From a virus, in the IMG/VR virus record IMGVR_UViG_3300035703_000009, positions 1 to 64,000 of that record: a DNA stretch of 64,000 nt; one strand, 5' to 3'. Shown here piece by piece: positions 35,748-56,640 of the stretch (positions are counted from its first letter, which is position 1; the number at the start of each line of letters is the position of its first letter). The notes under the pieces were generated by a model that did not search any database, was not told where the DNA came from, and saw nothing but the letters and a program-made list of their open reading frames with translations. The position numbers and the translations under genes were made by a program.

Positions 35748-36101
35748 ATGGAAAAATTTGAAATTAGACCTTGGGGCTGGTTTGAAGTGTTAACTGAAGA
35801 CGTTAACTATAAAGTTAAAAGATTAGTAGTATGTCCAGGCAAAAGACTCTCATATCAATACCATAATAAAAGAAAAGAACATTGGGTTGTTGTGCAAGGA
35901 GATGGAGTTTTTATCTATGGAAATGATAATTCGACTTTTGAAAAAACTGTGGAAACAGGTAGTTCAATTTTTATTGAAATTGGTGAGTATCATCGTATAC
36001 AAAATACAGGAGAAAGTGATCTGATCATCATTGAAACCCAATTAGGTCAGTGTGATGAAGAAGACATTGTAAGAATAGTTGACGACTTCAATCGAGTCTA
36101 A
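35748..36101 (+). CDS. cupin-domain protein (mannose-6-phosphate isomerase type II C-terminal-like)
   Basis: RPWGWFEVL...KVKRLVVCPGKRLSYQYHNKRKEHWVVVQGDGVF matches the PMI/ManC cupin signature. The start taken is the ATG at 35748, not the upstream in-frame Met of the ORF track. Confidence 0.55.
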   Translation: MEKFEIRPWGWFEVLTEDVNYKVKRLVVCPGKRLSYQYHNKRKEHWVVVQGDGVFIYGNDNSTFEKTVETGSSIFIEIGEYHRIQNTGESDLIIIETQLGQCDEEDIVRIVDDFNRV

Positions 36102-36694
36102 CGATATAGAGTTTCAATGCTCTCATACCTTAAAAAAGAATTAAGGCTTGAATTTGGATTGACTGAAACCATTGAAATCCCTTTACTTTTAAGCAGCTGC
36201 ATATTGAATTTAATCTTTTCAAATCTAGGTAGATACCAATCAGCTCCAACTGAATGGCCGATTTGATTTGAGGAGGAGTTGGATTTTTTCCAAAAATGAC
36301 TGGGGTCTTGCCACTTCAATGAGACTCCAGCAATGTAAAAAATTGAATTTGGAATGTAGTTTGTGTTGAAAAGATCAATTGCGTTTGAAATTGAGTCAGG
36401 AAAGAGTCTCGTATTTTTTCTAGAGTAAACTTTAGTCCATCCTGGTATTTTATTTTTGATGTTCTTTTGTAACCAGTCACTTGAATAAATTGTGGAATTT
36501 CTTTTAAGCTCTTCTAGTTTTTCAGGATAGCGCGAAAGTTCATTTGAAATGATAAGATCAGAAAAAAAGAAATAATTAGGAATAAATTTAAGCCAAATTC
36601 GATTTACACCGAGCGTCACAATGTTTGGATGAATTTTCTCAAAGTCAATTGAATTGATTTGTGGATCGTTACCTAAAACTAAAACTTTAGCCAT
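36098..36694 (-). CDS. Cst-II/GT42-like or Maf(DUF115)-like nonulosonate glycosyltransferase
   Basis: MAKVLVLGNDPQINSIDFEKIHPNIVTLGVNRIWL parallels Cst-II MKKVIIAGNGPSLKEIDYSRLPNDFDVFRCNQFYF. The IGHS motif aligns with the Cst-II catalytic His (YIGHS). Confidence 0.45.
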   Translation of the reverse strand: MAKVLVLGNDPQINSIDFEKIHPNIVTLGVNRIWLKFIPNYFFFSDLIISNELSRYPEKLEELKRNSTIYSSDWLQKNIKNKIPGWTKVYSRKNTRLFPDSISNAIDLFNTNYIPNSIFYIAGVSLKWQDPSHFWKKSNSSSNQIGHSVGADWYLPRFEKIKFNMQLLKSKGISMVSVNPNSSLNSFLRYESIETLYR

Positions 36695-36986
36695 TCAACC
36701 AGTCTCTAGAGTTCATATTTTTATCGTCAATGAAGACATCATATGCTGGCTTACCAAACTTTAGTTCGTGATACTGGACACCCCAAGTCCTAAGTTGTTG
36801 CTCAGTTAATTGTCTCCAATCGATTCCACTTTTAGTGCCCCTGGCAGTCCAGAAAACGATCTGGTGACCTTCCTCGTATAAAGCATTGACTTTTGCGATT
36901 GCCTGAGGAATCGGAGTCGCAGTTTCATACTTTAGGGACTCAGCTAGAGTGCAGATGGTGTCGTCAATGTCGATGTAGTAGGTCAT
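36687..36986 (-). CDS. small HAD-superfamily phosphatase
   Basis: YIDIDDTICTL (DxDxT), FWTARGT and KPAYDVFIDDK motifs. 99 aa. Confidence 0.5.
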   Translation of the reverse strand: MTYYIDIDDTICTLAESLKYETATPIPQAIAKVNALYEEGHQIVFWTARGTKSGIDWRQLTEQQLRTWGVQYHELKFGKPAYDVFIDDKNMNSRDWLNG

Positions 36987-37266
36987 CTATCTTAATGTTG
37001 TTTTCTTCTTTGAACTTTTCCCAAGCAGCCGCATCCATCATGTCTGGAAAGCGTGAGCCTCCATTGCAAGACTCCTTTACATAGATCTTGCCGGGAAAGG
37101 AACATCCGCAATTGATGCAAAATTCATATACGGCACAGTCATTCTTACAGACCTGTGAACGATAAAAGACTTGCTCTTTTTCGTGCTTAGGCAAGAGGTG
37201 GAACTGGTCGCCCAGCATCTTTAGGTTGCCCTCAATGAACTGGTAGATTTTCTTAGGGGTTATCAT
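36964..37266 (-). CDS. Cys-rich hypothetical protein (100 aa)
   Basis: CKNDCAVYEFCINCGCSFPGK cluster. Overlaps its neighbours by a few nt. Confidence 0.35.
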   Translation of the reverse strand: MITPKKIYQFIEGNLKMLGDQFHLLPKHEKEQVFYRSQVCKNDCAVYEFCINCGCSFPGKIYVKESCNGGSRFPDMMDAAAWEKFKEENNIKIDDLLHRH

Positions 37267-38153
37267 TTTCCTCTTAATGTTTTTCTTTTGTCAAGTTCAG
37301 ACTTAAGAACTTCTCTGGGGCCGTAACCTCCTCTAGCGCTTTCGATATCACGAATGCTCTTTATCAGCTTAATGAGTCCTTGGGGCTCGACTGAAGCTAT
37401 TTGATCACTGCCCCAAAGAGAACGATCGACTGTGATGTGACGTTCGATCCAGGTGGCTCCAAGCAAAGTTGCAGCAATGGTCGTAGTAAGTCCAAACTCA
37501 TGACCGGAATACCCCACCGCAAATGACTTTGGAAAGTCTTTACCCTTACTGATGTGGCTCAAGTAGGTGATATAGTCGAGATTAAGTTCATGATTTGGAG
37601 CAGGATAAGTAGAGTTAGTATGAAAAACTACATCAGGTCTACATTCAACTACTGCTAAGTCTATTTCCTCTTGTGTGCTCATACCGGTGGAGATAAGGAG
37701 AAAGTCTGAACAGTCTCGTGCGTATTGAATTAGCTCGAGGTCATGGATTAGGGCCGATGGTATTTTCATCATCACTCCCCACTTGCCATTAGGTAAGAGG
37801 GTCTCAAATTTTCGCGCAAAGTCAACTGACTTTTTGTCCCACACTGAGGTAAACCAACGCATTTTTCGAGCTTCGCAATAGTCATCTATTTCCTTGTACT
37901 GTTCATGGGAAAGCTCAATGTCGAGTTTATATTGAAAGTAAGTGGTCGCCTCTTTGCGCCAGGGCACCCTTTTTGTTTTTGACCTTTCCGCTTGAGGAAC
38001 ACACGATTCAGGATCACGTTTTTGAAACTTTACATAATCAACTCCGGAAACTGCCGCAATATCAATAAGTTTTTTTACATTATTGATGAATTCCTTCGTA
38101 GAGGAACCATATGCATAATTTATGCCTATTTCTGCAATTATCGTGGTTTTCAT
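37263..38153 (-). CDS. neuB: NeuB-family nonulosonic acid (sialic/legionaminic/pseudaminic acid) synthase
   Basis: IIAEIGINYAYGS, VKFQ, ISTGMST, VGYSGHEFG and IERHITVD match NeuB motifs IIAEIGCNHNG / ISTGMAT / VGYSDHSLG / IEKHFTLD. The start is set at the internal Met, which gives an ATGA overlap with the upstream gene. The ORF-track 5' extension reaches 38225. Confidence 0.75.
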   Translation of the reverse strand: MKTTIIAEIGINYAYGSSTKEFINNVKKLIDIAAVSGVDYVKFQKRDPESCVPQAERSKTKRVPWRKEATTYFQYKLDIELSHEQYKEIDDYCEARKMRWFTSVWDKKSVDFARKFETLLPNGKWGVMMKIPSALIHDLELIQYARDCSDFLLISTGMSTQEEIDLAVVECRPDVVFHTNSTYPAPNHELNLDYITYLSHISKGKDFPKSFAVGYSGHEFGLTTTIAATLLGATWIERHITVDRSLWGSDQIASVEPQGLIKLIKSIRDIESARGGYGPREVLKSELDKRKTLRGK

Positions 38154-39184
38154 GAGTTTACTAGAGAGTTTATCCAAGAAAAAGTTTTTTTCATTCCATC
38201 TACTAAAGGCTGGGAGACTTTCCAACCCATTTTTTCTTCATAAAGTTGGTTGTCTGAATTTCTACCTTTGACTCCAATTGGACACTTGAATCCGTACTTT
38301 TTCTTGAATTCTTCGCCTTCTATATTTTCAATAGAGATATTTTTATTTGAGATTAAGATCGCCATTTCAGCAAGTTGATTAATTGTAACCATCTCTTCAG
38401 AACCGATGTTGACAGGTCCTAAGAATCCATCTTGTCTCATGAATCTAAGAACTGCTTCAACACAATCATCAATGTACAAAAAAGAGCGAGTCTGCATACC
38501 GTCTCCCCAAACTTCTATGATACCTCCGCTCTGGGTTTCTGCTACTTTGCGGCACATTGCAGCGGGAGCCTTTTCCTTACCTCCTTTCCAAGTTCCATAG
38601 GGGCCAAATATGTTATGGAACCTGGCAATTCGCACGTCTAGCCCGTAGTTTCTATGAAAAGCTAAATAAAGTCGCTCACTAAAAAGTTTTTCCCAACCGT
38701 ATTCTGAGTCAGGATTTGCTGGATATGCTGATGACTCTTCACAATTTGGGTTATTTGGATCGAGCTGATTGTGCTCTGGGTACATGCACGCAGAAGAGCT
38801 ATAGAAAATCTTCTTTACTGATTTTTTGACGGCTTCATGTGCAACATTTAAGTTTATTAGAGATGAGTTATGCATTACATTAGCATCGTTATTACCTGTA
38901 AAAATATAACCAGCTCCTCCCATGTCAGCAGCAAGTTGATAAACTTCATCGAAAGATTTTTCTCTGTCCCCTTCAAAAGTTTGATTAGGAGATAACATGA
39001 CACAACTTACAAACTTAGGGTCTCTAAGATCACCTAAAATAAACTCATCACAAAAATCATCTTTATCAAAGTACTCATGAACTTTAATGTCAACTGCTCT
39101 GACCCAAAAGCCTTCTTCCTTTAATTTTTTAGCCAGGTGGCCTCCTATGAAGCCTCCTCCACCAAGTACTAGTGCCTTTTTCAT
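38150..39184 (-). CDS. NAD-dependent epimerase/dehydratase (GDP-L-fucose synthase-like extended SDR)
   Basis: LVLGGGGFIGGHL Rossmann motif. YSSSACMYP and VWGDGMQTRSFLYIDD resemble Fcl LGSSCIYP / VWGSGTPMREFLHVDD. Confidence 0.55.
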   Translation of the reverse strand: MKKALVLGGGGFIGGHLAKKLKEEGFWVRAVDIKVHEYFDKDDFCDEFILGDLRDPKFVSCVMLSPNQTFEGDREKSFDEVYQLAADMGGAGYIFTGNNDANVMHNSSLINLNVAHEAVKKSVKKIFYSSSACMYPEHNQLDPNNPNCEESSAYPANPDSEYGWEKLFSERLYLAFHRNYGLDVRIARFHNIFGPYGTWKGGKEKAPAAMCRKVAETQSGGIIEVWGDGMQTRSFLYIDDCVEAVLRFMRQDGFLGPVNIGSEEMVTINQLAEMAILISNKNISIENIEGEEFKKKYGFKCPIGVKGRNSDNQLYEEKMGWKVSQPLVDGMKKTFSWINSLVNS

Positions 39185-39921
39185 AATTTTCTTTTATTTT
39201 TTTCAAAAATTTTGTCTCCTGGAAAGGAGGCTGTATTTATGAATCCTTTTTGAGTTAAGAAAGCCATCATTTCATCTAGTGAATTTCCTGCCTGAACCGT
39301 ATGCTTTTGGTCCCACTCAATTATAAGAGTAAGGTTATTTGCTTTTTCTAAAAAATCGCTCATACCTTTTAATACATTCATCTCAAACCCTTGAACATCA
39401 ATTTTTATTAACCCAATATCGTAACTTGGATTTTCAAGTAAAAACGTGTCTAATTTTTTACAGACAACTTGCTCAGTAATGTAATTTTTAGAATTCATAT
39501 TAGAGATCGCAACCTCTTTGTTAAAGGAAGCATTGTCTGAGCAATAAGGAATGAATATTTCTTGAGTAGTATCAGAATCAAATAGAGCAAAGTTTAGAAT
39601 TTGCATGTTTTTACAAGAGTTTGCACTTTTACTCTGCTCTAACAATGAAACATTCATACTAAGCGGCTCAACTGATAGTACGGAATAACCATATTTTTCA
39701 GCAGGTATTGAAAACATTCCGCAATTTGCACCAACATCTAACACAGACCTAGATTTATCCATTTTTCTTACAAGATTAAGCATCATAGTGTAATCCTTCA
39801 TCTCATTGAGGTTTGTTCTAGCTTTTATTTTATAGTCAGTGACAAAATAGTCAAAATTAAAGATTACGTATTCAAAATTAGCGTTTTTAAAAATAAATCT
39901 TTCAGGTTTAGTAGAAATCAT
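39181..39921 (-). CDS. FkbM-family methyltransferase
   Basis: VLDVGANCGMFSIPAEK...VLSVEP matches the FkbM DVGANxG...EP signature. Confidence 0.5.
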   Translation of the reverse strand: MISTKPERFIFKNANFEYVIFNFDYFVTDYKIKARTNLNEMKDYTMMLNLVRKMDKSRSVLDVGANCGMFSIPAEKYGYSVLSVEPLSMNVSLLEQSKSANSCKNMQILNFALFDSDTTQEIFIPYCSDNASFNKEVAISNMNSKNYITEQVVCKKLDTFLLENPSYDIGLIKIDVQGFEMNVLKGMSDFLEKANNLTLIIEWDQKHTVQAGNSLDEMMAFLTQKGFINTASFPGDKIFEKNKRKL

Positions 39922-39932
39922 GAGCGTTTAGA

Positions 39933-40715
39933 TTATTTGAAGTAAGAATCATAATTAAAATCAGATAACTTATTTGAATAGTAATGAGGTCCTATTATTT
40001 TTAAGAATGCGTTTTGGTCCTTGATTCCACCGTCAGTGTCGCTAGCATTAGTCAACTGATTAGCCATACCGGGAGTAAATGAATAGCAGTTTAACGAAGG
40101 CTCAATTAGTATGAATGAGTGATCTATTGCTCGAGATCGGTGCACACACGCGTCCAGTAACTCTACTATTTTAGGTATTGAACTTGGATTAATTAAATAT
40201 GAGTGGCCGCAAAAAGAACCATATACTCGGTGTATGTACTTGATTCCAGTTAACTCATAATCCCCTCCTTTATTCCAACGACTGGGATCATTGTTTAGAT
40301 GATAAAAAGAAGAAAGGAAAAATATGTCCCAATCTAGGTTAAATTTTTCTTCAATGTACTTAAATCTTTCGTTAAAATCTTCGCAGAGAATGACATCATC
40401 TTCAAATATTCCAAGTATCTTATCACTGCTAGTATCGTATTCTTTAATTAGAGTGTAGTGGGAGCGATAGCATTTTTTCTGTCCTTCAGAAAAGGCTGAA
40501 CTAAATGGTATGCTGCAGCCAGATAAGTCTTCGTACGCTCTAAATTTTTTAGCATCGATGTTATGCTTTTTTAATTCAGAATTAACGTGGGCAAGTCTGT
40601 CTACTCTTCTGTCTAAATTTATGAAATAGAAGTCAATGTTCTTTCTTTCTATTTTTAAGAAGGTTTTTGTGTGAGCCATATACTTATGTATTATTTTTGT
40701 CTTATTTTTATCCAT
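39933..40715 (-). CDS. GT25-family glycosyltransferase
   Basis: FYFINLDRRVDRLAHV N-terminal motif and FEDDVIL, typical of GT25. Confidence 0.5.
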   Translation of the reverse strand: MDKNKTKIIHKYMAHTKTFLKIERKNIDFYFINLDRRVDRLAHVNSELKKHNIDAKKFRAYEDLSGCSIPFSSAFSEGQKKCYRSHYTLIKEYDTSSDKILGIFEDDVILCEDFNERFKYIEEKFNLDWDIFFLSSFYHLNNDPSRWNKGGDYELTGIKYIHRVYGSFCGHSYLINPSSIPKIVELLDACVHRSRAIDHSFILIEPSLNCYSFTPGMANQLTNASDTDGGIKDQNAFLKIIGPHYYSNKLSDFNYDSYFK

Positions 40716-41530
40716 CTTTCTGGAGTCAAAGCATTAGTATCAAAGCTTTGATAGTCTGGTCCAAACCACTCATCTGGATAAGGACAGTAAACAAGCTTAT
40801 CCGTAGATTTTGATAAATATGCAGCCCACCATGAAAAAGTACTGTTTGCAATAATGAAGTGGTCACACAAAGACTGAGCTATGAAGTCACTAATATAATC
40901 ATCGCTATAGTCAAAATAAGTAATAGGTTTTTGATATTTTTCAAATTTTCCAAATATGAATTCTTTAGTATCTTCATTATCAGTAAAGATGCATATTTCA
41001 TCGATGCTTTTTTTAGATAAAATGTCTTCTATACTTCTTTGATAGTATTCTAAAGTAAGAACTGGGTGTCTATGCTCGACACCTTTATGCCCTCCTCCAA
41101 ATTTACGATCATACTGATCACCCCAGCGTATGTGAATCGAAAGTTTCTTTGAGTTCTGATTCATTTTACTATTAACCTTTTCTATAATAGTTGGGTCAAA
41201 GACCAAATACTCAAGTACTTTTTTTTCATAATCATCAAAAAACAAAGAGGACTGAAAATATCCTACTATTTCTACTAATTTATCACTAGTTGGAATATTG
41301 TGGATTCCAAATTTAGATTCCTTATGAGTCAGTGAAATATTTGACTTTATTTTGACAGAGGAACGTGTAGGTAGATTTGGAAAAAGCTTTGCGTGCTCCC
41401 ACTCAGATGGAACAAAAAAGCTACTGTTGTTCTTAATTGCTTGACCAATAATAGTCGCAACTCTAAACAATTGATTGCCAAGGCGTCCATGACGATGGTC
41501 TAATATTTGCAAAGTAGTGAAACCTTTCAT
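40691..41530 (-). CDS. GT11-like alpha-1,2-fucosyltransferase
   Basis: HGRLGNQLF (GGLGNQMFQ-like) and LSIHIRWGDQY (HxRRGDY-like) motifs. Confidence 0.5.
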   Translation of the reverse strand: MKGFTTLQILDHRHGRLGNQLFRVATIIGQAIKNNSSFFVPSEWEHAKLFPNLPTRSSVKIKSNISLTHKESKFGIHNIPTSDKLVEIVGYFQSSLFFDDYEKKVLEYLVFDPTIIEKVNSKMNQNSKKLSIHIRWGDQYDRKFGGGHKGVEHRHPVLTLEYYQRSIEDILSKKSIDEICIFTDNEDTKEFIFGKFEKYQKPITYFDYSDDYISDFIAQSLCDHFIIANSTFSWWAAYLSKSTDKLVYCPYPDEWFGPDYQSFDTNALTPERWIKIRQK

Positions 41531-41546
41531 ATTTAAAAATTGTTTT

Positions 41547-42464
41547 TTATGAGTTTTGTACTACACTAGACTCAATGAGTTTAGACGGAAGCATTATTTT
41601 CGGTTCACTGAAACTTGCACTTTTAAAAAATTTATCATTATAATTGATAGTGTTTCGAGTAAGTGTGTGATGAAAGATTCCATCGTAATAGCTTTGGCTA
41701 TGATATACACTAGCTACATAGCTAAGAGAACTCTTTGACATTATGAATGCATCTGATTTGATTATTCTATCTAGCGTTTTTACAGGGTGCTCATCTAAAT
41801 GAAAAAATACTTTTCCATGCGCATTAAGTTCATTAAAATATTGAAAATCTAAAATGTCACCTTGAGAGTAAATATGAAATTGAATATTTTTATTAGTGGG
41901 CATGATTTCTTTAACGAAGTCAATGGAGCCGTTAGGAATATTGGGGTAATAATATCTACGCCATTCGGAGAAATCAGTGTCCTCGTCAGTAGCTCGTCTA
42001 ACATGAATAGAAATAATGAAATCTGAATTTTCTTCTCTTGGGTATTTTTTAATTAACTCTTCTTGAATATTGTTTAATAGAAAAATGTTATGGTCAGTTA
42101 GTGTCTTTAGATCTGCCCAGTGAAGATTAACTATTGATTTTTCTAAAGAGGAAGGATTATATATTAAAGTGTCTAACAATTCATATACACTCAGCTCTAC
42201 TACAGGAAGCGAATCAGACTCAGTAATCGAGTCTCTTAATAAAAAATCTCGAGTATATTCAAAAAAATGAAGATCCCATTCTTCTTGAGAAAAATTAAAT
42301 TTTTGAATGTGTCCAACGTTTTTCATTGGAGTTAATAAAAAATCAACTCCATAGTGTTTAGCCAATGCATAGCCGCCTAATTGAAGTTGAAAGGCAGAAC
42401 CAAAACCTTCGTTGTGTCCAGGAAGGTATAAATTTGAACAATCTATCTCACATTTTATTATCAT
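41547..42464 (-). CDS. putative glycosyltransferase (GT11-like?)
   Basis: GFGSAFQLQLGGYA and SIHVRRATDED weakly resemble GT11 motifs. Confidence 0.3.
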   Translation of the reverse strand: MIIKCEIDCSNLYLPGHNEGFGSAFQLQLGGYALAKHYGVDFLLTPMKNVGHIQKFNFSQEEWDLHFFEYTRDFLLRDSITESDSLPVVELSVYELLDTLIYNPSSLEKSIVNLHWADLKTLTDHNIFLLNNIQEELIKKYPREENSDFIISIHVRRATDEDTDFSEWRRYYYPNIPNGSIDFVKEIMPTNKNIQFHIYSQGDILDFQYFNELNAHGKVFFHLDEHPVKTLDRIIKSDAFIMSKSSLSYVASVYHSQSYYDGIFHHTLTRNTINYNDKFFKSASFSEPKIMLPSKLIESSVVQNS

Positions 42465-43171
42465 TACATTCCTCCAGTAAAATTTGAAAAATCTTTATTT
42501 AAAATTATATTATTCTGAAAACGAAGATTTCCATCAAAAGTTTGATAAAAAGTAAAATTTTGAGTTTTCATAAAATCTAATATTTCTTCTCTAGAAGAAG
42601 CATTTTCATACTGATATCGACAATCGTCTTCCATGTCCAAAAATTGAACTCTACGCAAATGTGGACCTAAACTCTTTGTAATATCTAAATCTTTTCCTTG
42701 AGCATCTATTTTTATTAATTCGATGTGTTCATATACTAGTGAGTCCAATAACATCTTAAGAGAAAAGGTTTCCACGTCAATTTCGCAATCTATTTCACAC
42801 TCTGGAATATTTTGCAATTTTGGAGTCAATAGACTAGAACAGCCAACATTTCCACTAAGAAGGTAAAATTTACTTTCACGTAAGGTGTCAACATTATCAC
42901 AAGCACCAATTATATGATAATAGTTTTCTTTTTGTTCATTTTCTTTAAATACATCTAATATGTTCCAGGTTTTTCCATCCCACTCATTTATTCCATCCAA
43001 ACAATAAGGATTAGGTTCGATTCCAATTACAAAAATATTTTTGACATTAGAGAACCACTGACGTGTGACTGGAGCGCTTATTGACGTGCCTATGTCAAAT
43101 CGCAATTTTTTATTTTTTAACTTTGAATTTAGTAATTTAAAATCACAATTTGAAAATTTACTAAAATTCAT
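42464..43171 (-). CDS. FkbM-like methyltransferase (divergent)
   Basis: RFDIGTSISAPV...VIGIEPNP pattern. Confidence 0.35.
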   Translation of the reverse strand: MNFSKFSNCDFKLLNSKLKNKKLRFDIGTSISAPVTRQWFSNVKNIFVIGIEPNPYCLDGINEWDGKTWNILDVFKENEQKENYYHIIGACDNVDTLRESKFYLLSGNVGCSSLLTPKLQNIPECEIDCEIDVETFSLKMLLDSLVYEHIELIKIDAQGKDLDITKSLGPHLRRVQFLDMEDDCRYQYENASSREEILDFMKTQNFTFYQTFDGNLRFQNNIILNKDFSNFTGGM

Positions 43172-44366: not shown

Positions 44367-44376
44367 CGTAGTTCAT

Positions 44377-45138
44377 TTATTTTTTAAACACTGGGATGTT
44401 TTGCATCTTGTGTGAATTTTGAGTGTTAAAACTTCGGTAAATCCCTATTACTTCTTTTTCTCTAGCTGAAAGCTTGTCCAGATCAGCGGCAGTAAAATAA
44501 GGATTTTTTTCTAAAAACTGCATAGCCCATTCAAGTTCAGCATAGGAAGCACCTATTTGATCTTCATCGCTTCGTCCGTCTTCCCAGAGTCCATCAGTTG
44601 GTTTTGCTTTAATAATTGATCTAGATATTCCCAAATCTTCCCCTAGCTCCCATACCTCAGTTTTTAATAAATCAGCAATAGGGCTAATATCTACTCCTCC
44701 ATCTCCATATTTTGTAAAGAAACCGACTCCAAAGTCTTCTACTTTGTTGCCTGTTCCAACAACCAGCCCATGATTCTCAGTAGCGATTTGATAGAGAGTC
44801 ATCATTCTGAGTCTTGACCTAGAGTTAGCCAACGCAAGTTTGTTATCTTTTGTAAACAACGACTTAAAATTTTCAAAAACTTGGGTAAGATTCAACTCAA
44901 TTGATTCAACATTTGAGAAGTTGCTCTTTAACCAAGAAATGTGTTCATCTGCTCTAGTTAACTGATCTGGCGCTTGATGAATAGGCATGCTTACAACAAT
45001 GGTTTTTATTCCGGTCATTGCACAAAGAGTAGAAACAACGGCAGAGTCTATTCCTCCAGAAACTCCTATAATAAATGTTTTAAGATTAGCCGATTTTAAA
45101 TAATCATTCAACCACTTTGAAATTTGTTGTTGTAACAT
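44377..45138 (-). CDS. nadE: NH3-dependent NAD+ synthetase
   Basis: FIIGVSGGIDSAV PP-loop. GFFTKYGDGGVDISPI is nearly identical to E. coli NadE GFFTKYGDGGTDINPL. 253 aa. Confidence 0.8.
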   Translation of the reverse strand: MLQQQISKWLNDYLKSANLKTFIIGVSGGIDSAVVSTLCAMTGIKTIVVSMPIHQAPDQLTRADEHISWLKSNFSNVESIELNLTQVFENFKSLFTKDNKLALANSRSRLRMMTLYQIATENHGLVVGTGNKVEDFGVGFFTKYGDGGVDISPIADLLKTEVWELGEDLGISRSIIKAKPTDGLWEDGRSDEDQIGASYAELEWAMQFLEKNPYFTAADLDKLSAREKEVIGIYRSFNTQNSHKMQNIPVFKK

Positions 45139-46204
45139 TCTTGATTTGATTTTTTACTTCTTCTCGATTATCTAATACTAACACTTCATATCCAAGTTCT
45201 GCTAAAGCTACTGCGTATTTTAGCTGTTGAGACTCCTCAATTAAGGTACTTTCTGCCTTATATGTAACGTATGGTAACTCTACTTTAATTGATTTATCGG
45301 GATTAGCTTTAATAAAGTCCTCGATTTGATATTGTAAATGTTTTTCATTCATTTCATCGGTTGCTTTAGAGATTACTGCATCGATTCCTACTTCTTCGCC
45401 ACACTTAGCTAGTGCTCTATTATCCCTAGGAAAACAGGGACCTCCGAATCCAAAACCAGGTCTTAAATATTTGTTTCCAATTCTTGAGTCAGTTCCGATC
45501 GCCTTTAAAACGACATCTGCATTGCACTCTAGTCTTTTTGCAATATCGCCGACCATGTTTGCAAAACTGATCTTGGTTGTCAAAAAGCAGTTTACTGAAA
45601 GTTTAGTCAATTCAGCTTCGGTGCAGCTCATCCTATTAAAAATTGGGCTAGAATCACACAGTCTTTCGTAAACTTGCTGTATACGATTGCCTGCATCAAG
45701 GTCAGCTTGCCCAATCAATACGTTATCACAATTTAGTTGATCTTTAATGATTGTGCCTTGTGCTATAAATTCTGGATTATAGGAGACTTTATAATTGTAT
45801 TCAGATAGCTTATTTTGAAGAGTCTCGCAATATCCAGGAAAGGTGGTACAATTTATTATTAAGTCTTTTCTTGTTTCTTGTTTTCCAAAAGAGATTAGCT
45901 TTTCTGCAATCTGCTCTATTTGTGAATGGTCATATTTCCAATCGTTAGTTGAAGGAGTTCTGACCACAACAAAAATGAGATTACTCTCTAGCGCTCTTTC
46001 CAAATTAGTTGTAAATTCTACATTTTTAGATTCAATCAAAAATTCATTTACGTATGGTTCTGATGTTCGAAAAGACTTTGAAGAAAGAGCATCTATGTAA
46101 TCTTGAGAAACATCTACGCCTAGTACAAAATATCCTTTTCTCTCTAAATTTAAAGCTAAACATAAGCCAAGTTTACCTACTCCGATTATCGAAATTTTGT
46201 TCAT
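45104..46204 (-). CDS. nucleotide-sugar 6-dehydrogenase (UDP-glucose/UDP-ManNAc dehydrogenase family)
   Basis: ISIIGVGKLG N-terminal Rossmann motif. GFGFGGPCFPRD contains the catalytic Cys motif. Confidence 0.75.
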   Translation of the reverse strand: MNKISIIGVGKLGLCLALNLERKGYFVLGVDVSQDYIDALSSKSFRTSEPYVNEFLIESKNVEFTTNLERALESNLIFVVVRTPSTNDWKYDHSQIEQIAEKLISFGKQETRKDLIINCTTFPGYCETLQNKLSEYNYKVSYNPEFIAQGTIIKDQLNCDNVLIGQADLDAGNRIQQVYERLCDSSPIFNRMSCTEAELTKLSVNCFLTTKISFANMVGDIAKRLECNADVVLKAIGTDSRIGNKYLRPGFGFGGPCFPRDNRALAKCGEEVGIDAVISKATDEMNEKHLQYQIEDFIKANPDKSIKVELPYVTYKAESTLIEESQQLKYAVALAELGYEVLVLDNREEVKNQIKNVTTTNFKVVE

Positions 46205-46868
46205 TTTTTACCATTTTTTGATTATTTATCGTTTTTTTAGTTAAGTGCTTAGTATTTTTGATAAAACGATCTATTATGAAATCGTAATTTACTTCTTTTT
46301 TTTCTATGTCGCTATGTCCTGGAATCTGAATAGCAGCTAACGGATAGCTACCGAAACACTCAAACTTACTTTGAACATTTTTTGCGAGCCATACATCAAT
46401 TATTTCGATGTTATTATTTTCAAAAGCATGCAATATAAAGTCAAATATTGTAGAATTATACGCTATTGCGTGTGCAGCATAACAGTTAGTTATTTTTAAG
46501 AGGTTTGGGCTCACTTGACTAAGTGAGGAATGACTATTATATCCAAGGTAATAGAGAGCCCAATGAGTCCTCTGTAGCTGATCTATCGCAGGAGGAATAA
46601 AGTTAATATTCATTAGTTCAAAGTCATCTTCGAAGACCAAAACATTTTTTAAGCCTAATGCTTTTGCTCTTTTGATTGTTTCTATGTGAGAAAGTAGACA
46701 GCCTTGACGACCGTTGCCGTCTGGAGGAACTATGCCTGAGAGTCTCTCAACGCGATCAGCTATTCCTAGCTGGTTAAAAATAGTCAACGCTCTAGCTAAG
46801 CGATCTGGTCTAGAATCTAAATTAATTAAGTAAATCTTTTGAAAATAATTAAATGCTTCCTTTATCAT
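46173..46868 (-). CDS. GT25-family glycosyltransferase
   Basis: IYLINLDSRPDRL and VFEDDFEL motifs. Confidence 0.5.
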   Translation of the reverse strand: MIKEAFNYFQKIYLINLDSRPDRLARALTIFNQLGIADRVERLSGIVPPDGNGRQGCLLSHIETIKRAKALGLKNVLVFEDDFELMNINFIPPAIDQLQRTHWALYYLGYNSHSSLSQVSPNLLKITNCYAAHAIAYNSTIFDFILHAFENNNIEIIDVWLAKNVQSKFECFGSYPLAAIQIPGHSDIEKKEVNYDFIIDRFIKNTKHLTKKTINNQKMVKNEQNFDNRSR

Positions 46869-47482
46869 GCGTCAATTTTACCCAGATGACAAACAACGTA
46901 ATCTGGAGTATCTATTTTATAGTGTTTTTCCTTTAAGATATGACTAATACTGGTCCAATCATGGCCATATCCGTCCGCCCATTGAAATGAGCAAGCACGA
47001 CGGTGGCAAATTGAACTTGTACCGATCCTATTTGCCTTGGGCTCGACCGTCCTTTTCCATTTTTTTTCTCCATTAAAGATATAATCGTCATAGTAACACC
47101 AAACATACTCTGAATCTTTAAAGCCACTAAGTATCTCAAGGTGTGTACTTCCAAAATAATCATCACTGTCTAAATAGCACACAATCTCGCCTGTGGATTG
47201 AGTTAAACCGGCTTGCCTAACTGTTCCGCTAAATAAGGGTTGTTTTGGAAGTTCAATCAAACGCACAGCTGAAAAATTAGAGTATTTTTCTCGAGTTATT
47301 TTTGAAGTTTTTTCGCAGCCGTCACTCACAATTATGAGCTCAGCACTCTTAAAAGTCTGGTCCAAAAAAGAATTTACTGCGCGTCTAAATTTGAACTCAC
47401 GATTTGAGGCAGCTTCAAACCCTCCACTAGTGTAGTGATCTAAATATGAAGCCATGATTACAGTTATCCTTGGAGAATTCAT
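46865..47482 (-). CDS. GT2-family glycosyltransferase
   Basis: ITVIMASY...IIVSDGC and YLDSDDYF (DxD) motifs. Confidence 0.5.
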   Translation of the reverse strand: MNSPRITVIMASYLDHYTSGGFEAASNREFKFRRAVNSFLDQTFKSAELIIVSDGCEKTSKITREKYSNFSAVRLIELPKQPLFSGTVRQAGLTQSTGEIVCYLDSDDYFGSTHLEILSGFKDSEYVWCYYDDYIFNGEKKWKRTVEPKANRIGTSSICHRRACSFQWADGYGHDWTSISHILKEKHYKIDTPDYVVCHLGKIDA

Positions 47483-48195
47483 GACAGTTCGTTGATTTTT
47501 AAAAAAGTTGGCTTAAAAGCACATAGATCAAAACATACATCCAGCTTTCCATGAGAAAAACCCATCTTTTTATACTCAGAAACATCACGATTTGAGATCC
47601 CAGGAATCCTAGGAGTTATTCCTTGAAAATGTATTATTGGAGAACTAGTAATGATTGCAAAATTCCATCCTTTTCTATAGAGCATATCATATAGGTAATC
47701 ATCTCCGCAAAAAAAGTGCAGATTTCTTGGAATTTGAGAGTATGCGGACCTACGCATGGTAAAGTCCCAACCTTGACGGTACTTACCATGAAAAATTCGA
47801 TATTCAAGTTGTGTACAAGACTGATAATTTGGGTGATTTGTTGAGTGAGCAACGCAGCCTACTCGCGGTTCTCTTTCAAAGACGTCAAGAGTGTCCTTAA
47901 TGAAATTTTTTGGAATTATTAGGTCGTTATTTAAAAAACAGCACAACTCATAATTATTTTTAAGAGCAAAATCGTTCCACACGTGGTTTAGTGGACGATT
48001 TTGTCCTGTATATTCTATCTTCTTTAAAAAGGAAAAAGAAAGTTGATCTAGGGACTCTCTAGTGCCGGGCTCAGTAGACCCATTATCGACGACTGTCAAC
48101 TCGAAATCCAGGCAACTCTGAACCGACAGTTGCGTAATTAGATCAATTGTATACTTTATATGATTTCTGTTAATTATTATTACGCCTAATTTCAT
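47479..48195 (-). CDS. GT2-family glycosyltransferase
   Basis: LGVIIINRN...LTVVDNGS N-terminal GT-A signature. Confidence 0.5.
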   Translation of the reverse strand: MKLGVIIINRNHIKYTIDLITQLSVQSCLDFELTVVDNGSTEPGTRESLDQLSFSFLKKIEYTGQNRPLNHVWNDFALKNNYELCCFLNNDLIIPKNFIKDTLDVFEREPRVGCVAHSTNHPNYQSCTQLEYRIFHGKYRQGWDFTMRRSAYSQIPRNLHFFCGDDYLYDMLYRKGWNFAIITSSPIIHFQGITPRIPGISNRDVSEYKKMGFSHGKLDVCFDLCAFKPTFLKINELS

Positions 48196-49052
48196 AAAGA
48201 ATCGTATATTTTAGTAAATTCGTTTACTATTGTTTGAGGATGCCAGTGTTGTTCCATCCAACTCCTACTTTCCTTTCCTTTTTCAAGAATAAAATCAAGA
48301 CCGGCATCGACTATTTTGTTTAGTTCCGTCTCAAGGGAATTGATCCAAACGTTGAAAAAAGGAGAAACTTGAGCACCAGAGGAAGAGAGTAGTATTTTTT
48401 CAACGTCTGGAGAAAGAGAGCATATTGTGAGTTTGCCAAGTGCAAGTCCTTCTAAACCTGATCTATGATAGCTTGAAGTAACGCACTCATCTATAATTAT
48501 GTTGCATTTTGATTTGCGAGCAATACAAGCATCAAGAGAGACTCCAGTTATCACATCAATTTCTACAGAGGTGCCATACTCTCTTTTAATCTTGTTAAGT
48601 ACTGCAAGAGTCTGATCATATCCCTTATCGTGCCACTTACCGAGTTTTTTTGTTCGGCTTGGAGAAAAACCTATTTTAATTGCATGTGAAACCTGCTGAG
48701 AAGAATATTGCGGAGTTGTGAAGTCAATCACATTTCTAACTATTGAGCAGCCTGAATACTCTGGCAGAGTTGCATGATATTGAGAAATTACTAACTTGCG
48801 GTCAACTCGGCTTTTTAGGTCTACTTGAAAAGGTTCGCTATGGTATTGCAAAACAGTTTTGATCCCATGCCGATTGCCAGGTAAGAGATTATGAGCATGT
48901 AGAATACTACCTGCTGGGAAGGCACGCATAGCCGGTGCACCTAATCCTGCCATCTCGCATCGATAGCCTTGACCGAATTTATTGATGGCTTTAGCTAATT
49001 CTAAAGGAGCTTGAGCAATAGGTGTTTGTCTATAGTGATAAACTATTTTCAT
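48192..49052 (-). CDS. hypothetical protein (286 aa), possible glycosyltransferase
   Basis: Embedded in the glycosyltransferase run. No motif recognised. Confidence 0.3.
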   Translation of the reverse strand: MKIVYHYRQTPIAQAPLELAKAINKFGQGYRCEMAGLGAPAMRAFPAGSILHAHNLLPGNRHGIKTVLQYHSEPFQVDLKSRVDRKLVISQYHATLPEYSGCSIVRNVIDFTTPQYSSQQVSHAIKIGFSPSRTKKLGKWHDKGYDQTLAVLNKIKREYGTSVEIDVITGVSLDACIARKSKCNIIIDECVTSSYHRSGLEGLALGKLTICSLSPDVEKILLSSSGAQVSPFFNVWINSLETELNKIVDAGLDFILEKGKESRSWMEQHWHPQTIVNEFTKIYDSL

Positions 49053-49055
49053 TAT

Positions 49056-50513
49056 TTACTTTTTTTTTAATATTCCTGGTTCGCCTTTTTCAAATTTACA
49101 AGTAAGATACTTTAACTCTAACAAGTAATTATGCACACTAGAAATATTCTTATCTGAATTTGATCTAAATATTGAATTTAATCCGTTTGTGTAGCCGTTA
49201 AAACCAAACAGGGACAGTGAATAGTGCGGAATCTTTAACTCCTCTAATAACAAAATCATGCTAAGTCCACTAGTTGGAAGAAGATAGCTTTTTTTTAAAG
49301 CGGCAGATATAGAAATTAGAGCAGGGTAGTGGTAGTTTAGTATTTTCTTGCTAGGATAACTAGCACAAATGTCACTGACTGCTTTGTGCCAAAGATCAAT
49401 AGGTTTTGAGAAAACTATCAAATAATCTGAGGGTTGGTCTAAATTAAATCTAGCCTGCCGAAATATGCAGTGAACGCTTGTTTTAGTGCCGGTGTGAGTA
49501 GGTTCGATTGGATAACCGTTGAATCTAATAACTACATCATGTGAATCAATTAGTTCTCCATGTTGGTGTTCTAAAAGTTCTGAAGAATTTGCGATTATTG
49601 CTATTTTTTTGCCAGTTAAATACTCTTTGAATGAACTTAATGAAGTTAACTTAGATTTAAGTAAAAATCTGTTTTCAGAAGATCTATTCAGTGTAATTGG
49701 TATTGAACTATTTTGCTGTTTTACATGAGGAATCGGCCTAGGTTGTTCTTCGGCATTTATAGTTTGTCTATCAGAATTAAAAGAACTCGGCTGGACTAAA
49801 AATTGGCTACTTTCTTTGTTTTTAAAAAGCCACACTTGATTGATTTTAGAATATTGAGCTGAGTTGTTTAGAGTTGTGAAAAGAATTACATCTTTAGACT
49901 CTAAGGAAGCTCGCATAGTTATAAATTTAGAGTCTAAGTATTCATTTGAAAAAGAAATGTTAGCTTCAGAATAAAAACTAGGATTTAGACAAGAATTCAA
50001 GTGATTATTTAGTTGTAAATCTAACGAATTGGAAGTTAACATTCTATTTGAGAGTTCATGGTAAACTTCTTCAGATAATGATATTTTTTCACTTAGGTGA
50101 AAAAAGAGAACTGAATTGAGCGCTTTGCCTAACTTATTTTCAGATATGAAATTACAGCTTTTTTGAAAAATTGAATAGTTAGAAAAGTATAGTAAACTTT
50201 CGTTTTCTGTAGATTCATTAAATACTGTCCATTTTAGAGCAGAGTTCACCAGTTCAAAATATTGCACTCGTCCCTTATATTTGTCTATTACACTAAAAAT
50301 AGGATGCGACGTTTGTAATTTTATTGCGAGCTTTGGATAAATTTTAAGAAGAATGTCATAATTCCTAGTGGATAATTGATCCATAGGATGATCGAGTAGG
50401 TTAATTGTACCAGTAAACCATGGATTGTTTTTTATAAAAGAAAAAATACTGGTTCTAAGTAGGTGAAAATTTTTGTTAGTGGCCTCAGTATACGCATTAA
50501 CTATCTTATCCAT
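49056..50513 (-). CDS. two-domain protein with C-terminal GT29-like (eukaryotic-type) sialyltransferase domain
   Basis: KKIAIIANSSELLEHQHGELIDSHDVVIRFNGYPIEPTHTGTKTSVHCIF matches sialylmotif L (C.VVGNSG.L..S..G..ID.HD.V.R.N.AP....DVG.KT). LPTSGLSMILLLEE...FGF matches motif S, and HNYLLE matches motif VS (Hx4E). The N-terminal 280 aa are unassigned. Confidence 0.55.
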   Translation of the reverse strand: MDKIVNAYTEATNKNFHLLRTSIFSFIKNNPWFTGTINLLDHPMDQLSTRNYDILLKIYPKLAIKLQTSHPIFSVIDKYKGRVQYFELVNSALKWTVFNESTENESLLYFSNYSIFQKSCNFISENKLGKALNSVLFFHLSEKISLSEEVYHELSNRMLTSNSLDLQLNNHLNSCLNPSFYSEANISFSNEYLDSKFITMRASLESKDVILFTTLNNSAQYSKINQVWLFKNKESSQFLVQPSSFNSDRQTINAEEQPRPIPHVKQQNSSIPITLNRSSENRFLLKSKLTSLSSFKEYLTGKKIAIIANSSELLEHQHGELIDSHDVVIRFNGYPIEPTHTGTKTSVHCIFRQARFNLDQPSDYLIVFSKPIDLWHKAVSDICASYPSKKILNYHYPALISISAALKKSYLLPTSGLSMILLLEELKIPHYSLSLFGFNGYTNGLNSIFRSNSDKNISSVHNYLLELKYLTCKFEKGEPGILKKK

Positions 50514-51151
50514 TTTACTTGATCTAAGTCTTTTTGAGTGTCGACGTCAACTACATCTTCGATCGGGTAGAACACGGTAGACGGGCCGTACATATTCTTA
50601 TTTAATTTATAGAGAGCAGAAGCTCTAAAGATGCACATGTAGTGACTGATCTCAAAGCACTTTGGATAGTCTTGGCGTCGGTATAGATCGTGTTCAAGTA
50701 AAGGCTTGCCGAAAACGCCGTCTGCTCCATGCTCCTGTAACATGAGATAAGGTGAGACTTTAAGTTCCTTCTTACATAGCATAGAATCAGCAAGACCTAA
50801 GTCAGCAAACTGACAGTAATATTCATAAGCCGCGTAAATCTCTTTCCAGGTCCTCTCTGGATAGGTTAAGTAGAGCATTATTACTTCAGCAGACATGGGA
50901 AGCCCGACGTTTTTTACGGCGTGTTGCATCACGTCCCGAATGTTAGCAGAGTCGTCTGATAGTTCAGAAGGACGATCGATTGCACAACACCCATGCTTAA
51001 TGGCTAACTGAAATATCTCAGGGTCGTCGGTCGTCACAAAAACACGTCTACGAAGAGACTCTGGAATCGAGTCTATTGTCGCTTTAAAAAGCTTACGGTT
51101 CTTAAAGGGTAGGCCCTTGGAACCCAGTCTGGCTGGAATGATGATGTTCAT
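50501..51151 (-). CDS. neuA: CMP-nonulosonic acid synthetase (NeuA-like acylneuraminate cytidylyltransferase)
   Basis: MNIIIPARLGSKGLPFKNRKLF matches NeuA/KdsB IIPARGGSKGIxxKN. Confidence 0.75.
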   Translation of the reverse strand: MNIIIPARLGSKGLPFKNRKLFKATIDSIPESLRRRVFVTTDDPEIFQLAIKHGCCAIDRPSELSDDSANIRDVMQHAVKNVGLPMSAEVIMLYLTYPERTWKEIYAAYEYYCQFADLGLADSMLCKKELKVSPYLMLQEHGADGVFGKPLLEHDLYRRQDYPKCFEISHYMCIFRASALYKLNKNMYGPSTVFYPIEDVVDVDTQKDLDQVKWIR

Positions 51152-51765
51152 AGTTGATCGAACTCTTTGAGAGTTATTTTTGGAATCTGTAGGTTACTAG
51201 ACTCGCTCAAGTTGTAAAAAGATACTCCGCGCCTTTCAAGCTCAGCTCTAAGCTTTTGATAAGCAAGATTGACCTTAGTCAGGTGCTTAGTCTTAACGAC
51301 ACTGTGCGCTCCATCCTTGGGATTATAAAAGTGCCCGTCTGTAAAGTCGACACCAATAACGCCGATGTGTTTTGCTCCCAATCGATACGCTAGGCAGACC
51401 GCACAATACGGCGAATTCAAATAGTGATCGAGATGGTTCTTTTTATCTAGACAAGTCAGCTCTCGAGTACCTAACTCAAAATAGATTAGGCTAGTGTGTC
51501 GCCAGCCCCTGGCGCAAGTAAAGAGGTGTTTTGACTTTGACTGTACTACTAGGTCCTTGCGTTTACCGACAAACCGTAATGGGCTGTCTGTGACTAGTAA
51601 ATAGGTCGGAGTAAAAAGGGCCGGCACGTCGTTGACTCCGATCGTGGTGTATCGTTCCGCATGTTCAGCAAAGCCCAGCAGAGAAGTGCCACAGCCACAG
51701 ACTATGATCTTTTCACCTGAATGCGGACGGTCAATGTCCTTAAGAGATTTGATTAAGCTAGACAC
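51148..51765 (-). CDS. hypothetical protein, possible Maf/DUF115-like glycosyltransferase
   Basis: KIIVCGCGTSL resembles the xIxGNGPSL motif of Maf/Cst-II-like enzymes. Weak. Confidence 0.25.
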   Translation of the reverse strand: MSSLIKSLKDIDRPHSGEKIIVCGCGTSLLGFAEHAERYTTIGVNDVPALFTPTYLLVTDSPLRFVGKRKDLVVQSKSKHLFTCARGWRHTSLIYFELGTRELTCLDKKNHLDHYLNSPYCAVCLAYRLGAKHIGVIGVDFTDGHFYNPKDGAHSVVKTKHLTKVNLAYQKLRAELERRGVSFYNLSESSNLQIPKITLKEFDQL

Positions 51766-51830
51766 TTAGATAAATTATTTTAAAACCTAGTCTTCAATTT
51801 TTATACAAGATCAGGAACATAAGTTTTAAA

Positions 51831-52850: not shown

Positions 52851-52867
52851 AATAAATAATAAAAAAA
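52851..52867 (+). promoter_or_regulatory. T4-late-like promoter motif AATAAATAATAAAAAAA
   Basis: Exact 14-mer, 10 nt upstream of the TTG start at 52877. Flanked by complementary aaagcctt / aaggcttt arms. Confidence 0.55.
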
Positions 52868-56624: not shown

Positions 56625-56640
56625 GATAAATAATAAAAAC
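56625..56640 (+). promoter_or_regulatory. T4-late-like promoter motif GATAAATAATAAAAAC
   Basis: Exact 14-mer, 11 nt upstream of the ATG at 56652. Confidence 0.55.

Follow-up and report, generated by a model that had tools for sequence, protein, structure and literature searches.

A predicted operon for nonulosonic acid glycan synthesis with an exchangeable central cassette in an uncultured phage

The first 64,000 nucleotides (positions 1-64,000) of the virus record IMGVR_UViG_3300035703_000009 from IMG/VR, here called the window and the reference for all coordinates unless another contig is named, contain a 16 kb locus of sugar genes (35748-51765) between baseplate and head genes. Judged from its sequence, this locus encodes a complete set of enzymes to make, activate and transfer a nonulosonic acid (NulO), together with enzymes for GDP-L-galactose/GDP-L-gulose and for a uronic acid. 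The low-GC central cassette of the locus is exchanged by recombination within a conserved framework, and near-identical phages differ in this cassette. An earlier note on the same DNA had described a large and coherent operon for glycan synthesis, in which many glycosyltransferases and O-methyltransferases accompany a module for a CMP-activated nonulosonic acid, and this description was confirmed. We tentatively regard the locus as a hypervariable glycan-type locus at a fixed site whose product may be attached to the virion; our confidence in this explanation as a whole, variable locus and virion target together, is slightly short of even.

Operon architecture and cassette exchange

The locus comprises 22 genes, namely 21 open reading frames (ORFs) on the minus strand (36098-51765) and one convergent ORF for a cupin on the plus strand (35748-36101), in agreement with the twenty-odd contiguous genes antisense to the flanking late operons reported in the earlier note. 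The minus-strand ORFs follow each other at distances of -35 to +16 nt, overlapping or directly adjoining, and form one leftward operon that starts from a conserved divergent control region, with p51148 as first and p36098 as last gene. The position between baseplate and head modules was also found as claimed: the gp5-like baseplate hub gene (34949-35743, plus strand; PHROG 430, 2e-19) ends the baseplate genes of the left flank, and genes for DnaJ (51831-52826), an S77 prohead protease (52877-54856; PF03420) and a Gp23-type capsid protein (54884-56554; PF07068) follow on the plus strand at the right. Sugar-enzyme assignments are backed by profile, PDB or fold searches for 18 of the 22 genes. 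No membrane helix was predicted in any of the 22 proteins, and no Pfam family of an initiating polyprenyl-phosphate transferase, flippase, polymerase, ligase or ABC exporter was detected among them.

For comparison, 62 capsid-anchored IMG/VR loci (L numbers below) with capsid proteins 51-96% identical to that of the window were used, 48 of them scorable for the island. The order hub gene, locus, DnaJ, protease and capsid gene is conserved in these relatives, with a segment of 69 bp to 16.1 kb between hub and DnaJ, and a homologous island is present at the same site in about 28 of the 48. Twelve islands, the longest being that of the window, could be measured end to end and share a framework of two arms: p36098, a HAD phosphatase, a Cys-rich protein and NeuB form the left arm, and a two-domain transferase, NeuA and p51148 form the right one. 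The 3-15 genes enclosed by these arms belong to about 65 clusters, most of them singletons. A Pfam census of the other cassettes led to GT2, GT8, RgpF, WbsX, WbqC, DegT, PglD-like acetyltransferases, methyltransferases, dioxygenases and a pyruvyl transferase, the DegT and PglD-type genes suggesting legionaminic acid (Leg)- or pseudaminic acid (Pse)-type sugars in those islands.

The exchange itself is seen in L064 (195 kb) and L065. Compared with the window, both are 99.8% identical in the hub gene, 96.1% from the 3' end of NeuA up to and including the capsid gene and 80.5% in the left arm, and instead of a homologue of 38153-50523 they carry a 6.4 kb block with genes for GT8, RgpF, WbsX, a GT4-type enzyme, a 205-aa protein and a 2OG-Fe(II) oxygenase. 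The cupin gene is missing from both as well. The breakpoints of the swap, which coincide with compositional boundaries, are the start codon of NeuB and the stop codon of NeuA, and delimit in the window a replaceable low-GC cassette of 12.4 kb with 15 genes (38153-50523, minus strand). Each cassette type recurs in several samples. An assembly chimera or artefact can be dismissed for the island of the window, since copies 98.9-100% identical to it were found in at least nine contigs from several metagenomic samples, one of these contigs having a length of 198.8 kb.

The central part of the locus has a GC content of 0.29-0.39 compared to 0.43 in the flanks. The compositional deviation expected by the earlier note for the whole locus applies to the centre (38153-50523), the cupin gene and p36098 (GC 0.29-0.39; GC at third codon positions, GC3, 0.20-0.33), with a tetranucleotide distance in the cassette about three times the background, whereas the genes of the HAD phosphatase, the Cys-rich protein, NeuB, NeuA and p51148 are backbone-like (GC 0.42-0.46, GC3 0.38-0.53). 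In most of the 12 complete islands the GC content of the cassette was likewise below that of its own backbone.

The control region between the island operon and the divergent DnaJ gene (51766-51830) contains the blocks AGAACCTTTT, TTATACAATATA and AGTTTAGAAAAAA, which are conserved in 28 related loci, full or reduced (e.g. L011 6889-6956, L024 6716-6947). Probably this region serves both directions as a promoter or operator of a class other than late, and the 14-mer ATAAATAATAAAAA has no match within it. This 14-mer occurs in the window in eight exact copies, on the plus strand at 10176-10189, 18110-18123, 23788-23801, 29876-29889, 52852-52865 and 56626-56639 and on the minus strand at 15373-15386 and 22574-22587, and 16 times with up to two mismatches (1.8 expected). 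Exact copies and several variants lie 10-25 nt upstream of starts, among them the starts of several baseplate genes and of the prohead protease; the motif is similar to the T4 late promoter TATAAATA and probably acts as late promoter in this phage. A version with one mismatch was detected at 46216-46229, 12 nt upstream of the dehydrogenase gene of the cassette. Scans for sigma-70 promoters and terminators gave results no better than shuffled sequences.

Framework and cassette enzymes and the proposed glycan

All genes described in this section are on the minus strand except the cupin gene. The NulO synthase of the framework is a NeuB-family protein of 296 aa (37263-38153) with a Pfam match to NeuB (PF03102) at 6e-55 (186.9 bits; cut-off 22.1). 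The ATG at 38153 is its likely start, and public contigs call the same length. The motifs GYSGHE, ERHITVDR and KIPSA are retained and AEIGxNH is altered to AEIGINY. The C-terminal SAF (antifreeze-like) domain of canonical NeuB, PseI and LegI is lacking, the NCBIfam model being matched to position 276 of 329, and the nearest match in the PDB, 6ncs (8e-16), has a length of 290 aa. Scores of 2e-47 with NeuB_NnaB (162 bits; cut-off 400) and 6e-33 with PseI (114 bits; cut-off 340) are both below the equivalog cut-offs.

The HAD protein (36687-36986) is a capless phosphatase of 99 aa with matches to a PDB entry named 'capsule biosynthesis protein' (9iqw, 6e-12) and to a BT0820-type HAD of NCBIfam (6e-5). 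Its Pfam score is weak, and the motifs DIDDT (DxDxT), WTARG, KFGKP and FIDD are all present; we propose it as a candidate nonulosonate-9-phosphate phosphatase. Activation would be performed by NeuA, the CMP-nonulosonic acid synthetase (50501-51151; PF02348, 8e-8, 32.8 bits, cut-off 22.6), which aligns in full length (residues 4-213) to the CMP-Neu5Ac synthetases 6ifd (5e-12) and 1eyr (2e-10). The two-domain transferase (49056-50513) consists of a conserved, transferase-like N-terminal domain of about 260 aa and a GT29-like C-terminal domain unrelated to it. The latter matches PF00777 at 1e-8 (residues 301-351; 35.4 bits, cut-off 23; model positions 54-106 only) and ST3Gal1 (PDB 2wnb) at 4e-6, and sialyl motifs L (304-333), S (413-441) and VS (HNYLLE, 461-466) are readable. 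With about 190 aa and no hydrophobic segment, it lacks the type II membrane anchor and the full-length catalytic domain of eukaryotic and viral GT29. The N-terminal domain has homologues in 11 relatives with other C-terminal domains, the fusions of relatives being GT2, RgpF or GT29-like.

The first operon gene, p51148 (51148-51765), encodes a minimal Maf-like/sialyltransferase-fold protein of 205 aa compared to 632 aa for Maf, without the flanking N- and C-terminal domains of Maf and with no flagellar genes within the window. Its score with Maf (PF01973) of 13.1 bits is below the cut-off of 34.6; the fold of the Maf catalytic domain (PDB 5mu5) is matched, and three listed homologues (P0021, P0029, P0044) carry a precomputed PF01973 match. 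Based on the modelled fold, we propose p51148 as a candidate NulO transferase. The last operon gene, p36098 (36098-36694, 198 aa), is present in 11 of the 12 complete islands and appears to be a distant paralogue of p51148, as profile-profile comparison by hhalign gave a probability of 67% and E 5e-5 over 168 columns; no match was obtained for it in Pfam (E<=10) or PDB sequence searches. The label Cst-II/Maf-like given to p36098 in the earlier note has this comparison with p51148, itself Maf-like by fold, as its sole support, and its labels of HAD phosphatase, NeuB, GT29-like sialyltransferase and NeuA were upheld by the matches described above.

The framework is completed by the Cys-rich protein (36964-37266, 100 aa) with the six invariant cysteines C40, C44, C50, C53, C55 and C67. 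It is encoded by the most conserved gene of the locus and has only 61 homologues; its fair structure model gave no fold match. Even in phages stripped of the rest of the island, this gene stays beside NeuB or a NeuB remnant. In L108 (12020-12982, minus strand) and L082 (7229-8191, minus strand), a 321-aa gene with a GC content of 0.25 is found between the Cys-rich gene and NeuB, that is, inside the recombining arm; its DUF7487 and DUF559/Vsr-like endonuclease domains make it homing-endonuclease-like. The genes for making, activating and transferring the NulO are conserved together across islands. Among 50,697 deposited phages, two carry a NeuB of this kind and none p51148, and the Maf-like pair and the Cys-rich protein are restricted to this phage clade.

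The cassette begins next to NeuB with a GDP-mannose 3,5-epimerase (GME; 38150-39184), which forms GDP-L-galactose and GDP-L-gulose. It matches the Arabidopsis GME (PDB 2c59) in full length at 3e-90, compared to 4e-20 for the next family and 1e-17 for fucose synthases, and thus is not the GDP-fucose-synthase-like epimerase it had been taken for; it is 72-79% identical to enzymes of Flavobacteriaceae, Saprospiraceae, Chitinophagaceae and other Bacteroidota. The PMI-type (type II PMI C-terminal) cupin outside the operon (35748-36101, plus strand; PF01050, 4e-26; TIGR01479 C-terminal region, 1e-26; GC 0.33) has homologues in four bacterial loci, in each directly upstream of GME, and in a cyanophage, close to GME. 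Apart from this cupin-GME pairing, the surroundings of the closest GME genes showed no bacterial locus syntenic with the cassette.

Two FkbM-family O-methyltransferases are well supported, one of them RfbT-like (39181-39921; PF05050, 1e-17; PF05575 RfbT, 5e-8; TIGR01444, 5e-24) and the other at 43168-43809 (PF05050, 9e-16; TIGR01444, 2e-20). A third, weak FkbM-like protein (42464-43171) remains below the cut-offs of PF05050 (5e-4, 20.6 bits, cut-off 22.7) and TIGR01444 (5e-5), and the four FkbM methyltransferases of the earlier note are reduced to two or three. One GT11 protein of the alpha-1,2-fucosyltransferase family, the likely user of the GME product, was confirmed (40691-41530; PF01531, 3e-14). 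The possible second one (41547-42464, 305 aa) shows an HVRR motif only, gave no Pfam match at E<=10 and no PDB match, and reached 0.07 in BLASTP against the GT11 protein; no family is assigned to it. The same applies to a 186-aa protein (43806-44366) previously called a TylF-like methyltransferase, for which searches in Pfam (E<=10), NCBIfam and PDB sequences returned nothing. Two GT25 enzymes (39933-40715, PF01755, 2e-12; 46173-46868, 6e-7) and two GT2 enzymes (46865-47482, PF00535, 4e-12; 47479-48195, 4e-10) were found as described, as were the PMI-type cupin, a NadE-type NH3-dependent amidoligase of the NAD synthase family (44377-45138; PF02540, 4e-50; TIGR00552, 6e-52, above cut-off) and, with the wider substrate class of NDP-sugars, the UDP-sugar dehydrogenase. 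This NDP-sugar 6-dehydrogenase (45104-46204; TIGR03026, 5e-72, above cut-off; PF00984 and PF03721, 2e-29), which leads to a uronic acid, overlaps the NadE gene by 35 nt. Pseudogenisation of the dehydrogenase in other contigs was ruled out, as the apparent breaks are N-gaps of the scaffolds.

Next to the two GT2 genes, p48192 (48192-49052, 286 aa) represents a family so far seen only on metagenomic contigs, many of them phage-sized (up to 484 kb). None of its 214 homologues has a Pfam domain, and its own searches in Pfam (E<=10) and PDB sequences remained empty; it recurs beside a sialyltransferase-like gene and has a 46% identical copy in the huge phage LR756508. Together, the two GT2 genes and p48192 are 67-73% identical to genes of other clade members, with 73% in L002 for the first GT2 and 68-71% in L002 and L012 for the second. 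The C-terminus of the second GT25 is set by an A7/A8 homopolymer, with T7 at 46232-46238 in the window and in an identical Logan contig and T8 in four other contigs, giving 231 or 215 aa. This may be a true difference in length or an error of sequencing; the homopolymer is located immediately upstream of the late-like motif that precedes the dehydrogenase gene.

The operon thus holds at least eight transferase domains and two or three O-methyltransferases, all predicted to be soluble, and the following pathway is proposed. NeuB would condense phosphoenolpyruvate with a 6-phospho-hexose and the HAD phosphatase would strip the phosphate, as in a route over the 9-phosphate of a 2-keto-3-deoxynononic acid (KDN)- or N-acetylneuraminic acid (Neu5Ac)-type sugar. 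A phosphorylated substrate is assumed because, among 47 longer viral loci with this NeuB type (drawn from 318 matching IMG/VR stretches), HAD accompanies NeuB in 42, usually directly adjacent; NeuA is present in 45. The NeuA-NeuB-HAD trio in most of these loci points to a 9-phosphate NulO route common in viruses. KDN as the product had also been considered on account of the PMI cupin, an argument weakened by the pairing of this cupin with GME in bacteria and a cyanophage, which leaves the adjacency of HAD as the single basis of the 9-phosphate route. NeuA would give the CMP-sugar. GT11 may transfer the product of GME, L-galactose or L-gulose, because the trio of cupin, GME and GT11 recurs in the cyanophage contig MH319754 and the pair of cupin and GME in bacteria. 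The dehydrogenase would supply a uronic acid, possibly amidated by the NadE-like ligase, the two GT25 and two GT2 enzymes would add hexoses, and the FkbM/RfbT-like enzymes would O-methylate terminal sugars. The NulO would be added last by the GT29-like domain and/or the Maf-like proteins. Of the methylated, fucosylated and NulO-capped glycan predicted by the earlier note, the methylation and the CMP-NulO module stand, and L-galactose or L-gulose (GME and GT11) fits better than fucose.

Target of the glycan and history of the locus

From the gene content and its comparison with known enzymes, the glycan may be placed on serine and threonine residues of virion proteins in the cytoplasm, a view that we favour with not quite even confidence. 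Maf glycosylates flagellin. A virion target is suggested because the locus encodes no lipid-carrier or export function and no membrane helix, because the clade-specific conserved transferases share the fold of the Maf protein glycosyltransferase (p51148, and p36098 by profile match), because the locus stays beside the head module with a control region in common with DnaJ, and because a late-promoter-like motif precedes the dehydrogenase gene. Each cassette would then lead to a different glycan coat on the particle. The fuller picture, in which particles coat themselves with a NulO-capped methylated glycan by means of minimal Maf-like enzymes and switch their glycotype by cassette swap at a fixed locus, is somewhat more speculative. 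Glycosylation of virions by phage enzymes has a precedent in mycobacteriophages, as cited in PMC12619734.

Several observations weigh against this target or the chemistry behind it. Between phages with and without a full island, the capsid proteins showed no difference in Ser/Thr content or in insertions, and a search for Ser/Thr-rich insertions in the island-bearing phages found none. No structural gene downstream of the capsid gene was found to track the state of the island, in a comparison confounded by phylogeny, and the first operon gene lacks the late-type motif seen before virion genes. The NeuB and PseI models both stay below their cut-offs, with no NeuC or aminosugar pathway in this island, and NadE, which scores as a true NAD synthase domain, may simply make NAD+. 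Moreover, GT25, GT11, GT2, GT8, RgpF and WbsX together with RfbT-like methylation are typical of lipopolysaccharide (LPS), lipooligosaccharide (LOS) and O-antigen synthesis.

The last point fits a glycan made by the same locus and chemistry for the host envelope, i.e. LPS or LOS core, O-antigen, capsule or S-layer, where it would mask receptors, block superinfection or keep progeny from sticking to debris. The diversity of cassettes would in that case track the diversity of surface acceptors among hosts. The conserved ends and variable low-GC centre mirror bacterial surface-polysaccharide loci, the epimerase is of a kind found in Bacteroidota, a control region of non-late class drives the operon, and similar sets of sugar genes occur in a marine T4-like cyanophage contig. 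Prophage enzymes altering NulO residues of host capsules are documented (PMC12053666 and PMC6586298). We consider a host target, the main rival, somewhat less likely than the virion: without initiating transferase, flippase, polymerase, ligase, exporter or any membrane protein, all steps beyond the cytoplasm would be left to the host, the fold of the two most conserved transferases is nearest to that of a protein glycosyltransferase, and the locus has remained embedded among virion genes across more than 40% capsid divergence.

The earlier note had suggested a horizontally acquired accessory island between two late modules for the whole 16 kb. A recent insertion of this kind, between modules adjacent in relatives, would account for the low GC content and deviant tetranucleotides of the central 12.4 kb, the cupin gene and p36098, for a GME closest to bacterial enzymes and for DNA unmatched among deposited phages, megablast of 35-53 kb against the 50,697 genomes having given no match. 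It is also in line with L048, where 69 bp separate hub gene and DnaJ (n=1). Other loci hold the Cys-rich gene only (n=2), about 1.9 kb with the Cys-rich gene and a 253-aa NeuB-like gene (n=16) or 6.7-16.1 kb (n about 28). In a tree of the capsid proteins, every lineage down to the deepest branch contains full islands, and the form of about 1.9 kb is a single nested clade. The NeuB-like proteins of reduced loci (243-254 aa) lack the motifs AEIGxN, KIPSA, GYSGHE and ERHIT and a 30-aa segment; such pseudoenzymes, kept with the Cys-rich protein and without NeuA, are found for example in L006 (6122-6880), L024 (6116-6877), five similar loci and L068 (4352-5080). Because islands span the capsid tree, the short form is nested and the remnants lack the catalytic motifs, repeated reduction of an ancestral locus is the simplest history, the short forms looking like losses, with no recent insertion. 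As the framework is also backbone-like in composition and syntenic in about 28 related loci, and as neither a tRNA nor an attachment-type repeat was found at the borders of the island nor an integrase-type family in Pfam scans of its proteins, recent acquisition of the whole is very unlikely. Signs of import or exchange are confined to the centre, the cupin gene and p36098, and the central cassette alone is peculiar to this type of phage.

We give equally little credit to a set of separate auxiliary metabolic genes without a common glycan, in which NadE would serve NAD+ supply or counter-defence and cupin, epimerase and dehydrogenase would redirect sugar-nucleotide pools of the host. The score of NadE and four genes without assignable function are in its favour, and NAD+ synthesis genes are reported in jumbo phages (PMC11662467); on the other hand, the 21 genes are co-oriented with overlapping stops and starts, at least eight glycosyltransferase domains and two or three sugar methyltransferases need a common acceptor, and NulO activation and transfer functions are complete and conserved together. 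Least credible is a hypermodification of the phage DNA by the glycan, as an extension of T-even-type base glycosylation, since the families identified for the other 50 proteins of the window include no hydroxymethylase-type or other base-modification gene, GT25, GT11, GT29-like and Maf-like families are to our knowledge not those used on DNA, and we know of no NulO on DNA. That phage glycosyltransferases decorate DNA with varied glycans is known (cited in PMC12619734; PMC13326640).

Related systems, the phage and further features of the window

Phage glycosyltransferases are usually discussed as single genes modifying DNA or the serotype of the host, and the locus described here has the logic of a bacterial serotype locus. 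Like surface-polysaccharide loci with NulO modules (LOS neuBCA/cst of Campylobacter jejuni, K loci of Acinetobacter baumannii), it combines conserved ends with a variable low-GC centre, places the NulO synthase and the CMP-activating enzyme beside strain-specific glycosyltransferases and modifying enzymes, and shows replacement of whole cassettes between near-identical genomes. Unlike these, it belongs to a lytic-type jumbo phage, lies between virion modules and has no initiation, export or membrane genes. The centre differs in almost every relative, implying strong diversifying selection on a glycan made by the phage. The enzyme set also recalls flagellin glycosylation islands with Maf (Campylobacter, Aeromonas, Magnetospirillum Maf PDB 5mu5), but p51148 and p36098 are cores of about 200 aa without flanking domains, flagellin is absent, and the HAD-linked synthase suggests a 9-phosphate rather than a Pse/Leg route for this particular island. 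As subjects of enzymology, these minimal Maf-like proteins are attractive, and so is the compact GT29-like domain.

Chloroviruses and mimiviruses encode their own glycan machineries. The glycans of mycobacteriophage capsids and tail tubes (Freeman 2023, as cited in PMC12619734) are similar to the present case in that glycosyltransferases and methyltransferases of the virus are encoded near or within structural genes in lineage-specific sets. The locus described here is much larger than the mycobacteriophage sets, is predicted to include de novo synthesis and activation of a NulO and switches its cassette within one phage species. In the literature, no paper describing phage-encoded NulO synthesis or a switching phage glycan locus was found. 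If the virion is the target, the locus would be to these viruses what O-antigen or capsule serotypes are to bacteria, and sialic-acid-like glycosylation would be seen for the first time on a phage virion; this would raise questions on particle stability, adsorption, grazing and immune recognition, and imply a phage diversity hidden from capsid or genome similarity. If the host is the target, it would be an unusually elaborate remodelling of the surface by a lytic phage.

Islands of sugar or 'LPS' genes are known from T4-like cyanophages and huge phages, and two deposited genomes carry gene sets similar to the one described here. The marine Kyanoviridae contig MH319754 (L191, 72485-103288) contains cupin, GME and GT11 genes, a 2OG oxygenase, adjacent NeuB and HAD genes and GT25, and the 484 kb huge phage LR756508 (L190, 307775-338578) contains NeuA, p48192, two GT25, NeuB, GT29-like motifs and HAD within about 19 kb. 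Unlike the island described here, both lack the Maf-like pair and the Cys-rich protein and have another position relative to virion genes. Judged by these matches, parts of the gene set circulate among unrelated phage lineages.

Concerning the phage itself, the window also encodes a T4-type Gp20 portal (PF07230), a family-B polymerase, topoisomerase II subunits, PhoH and helicases. The term 'T4-like' overstates the kinship, because the capsid protein is at most 38% identical to that of any deposited phage (all 1876 matches are below 60%) and is best matched by uncultured huge phages (38%) and Lak phages/megaphages (32%). By these comparisons, it is a distant relative of huge phages with a T4-type structural core and no close relative of T4. 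The clade consists of uncultured freshwater jumbo phages and probably corresponds to the 'moraphage' lineage infecting Bacteroidota. According to Perez-Hernandez et al. 2025 (PMC12619734), moraphages are jumbo phages from freshwater that have genomes of 200-307 kb, encode DnaJ, share four core glycosyltransferase orthogroups and are predicted to infect Bacteroidota; the likeness consists in DnaJ, the freshwater-type metagenomes and the Bacteroidota-type GME. One moraphage genome is from BioSample SAMN08331091, and L065 from the numerically close SAMN08331096. In the moraphage paper (PMC12619734), there is no mention of NeuB, of sialic acids or nonulosonic acids, or of any variable locus.

Just after the capsid gene, a 590-aa protein (57746-59518, plus strand) consists of repeats of about 15 aa (STVSGGxxNTASGxx) encoded by 45-bp tandem repeats. 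With a match to UspA1_rep (2.6e-27), 30% Ser+Thr and 28 Cys it has the appearance of a trimeric-adhesin-like beta-roll fibre, and is a candidate head or tail fibre as well as a candidate glycan acceptor. Assemblies break inside the repeats, and the gene is missing from some contigs. Among near-identical phages its length is 463 or 590 aa with the cassette of the window and 813 or 828 aa with the other type, too few cases for a co-variation. A third GT25-family gene (3438-4094, minus strand; 2.7e-9) was detected about 32 kb from the island among mostly unannotated minus-strand genes. The DnaJ directly upstream of the protease and capsid genes is of full length, with J domain and C-terminal domain, and its position is kept in 49 related loci.

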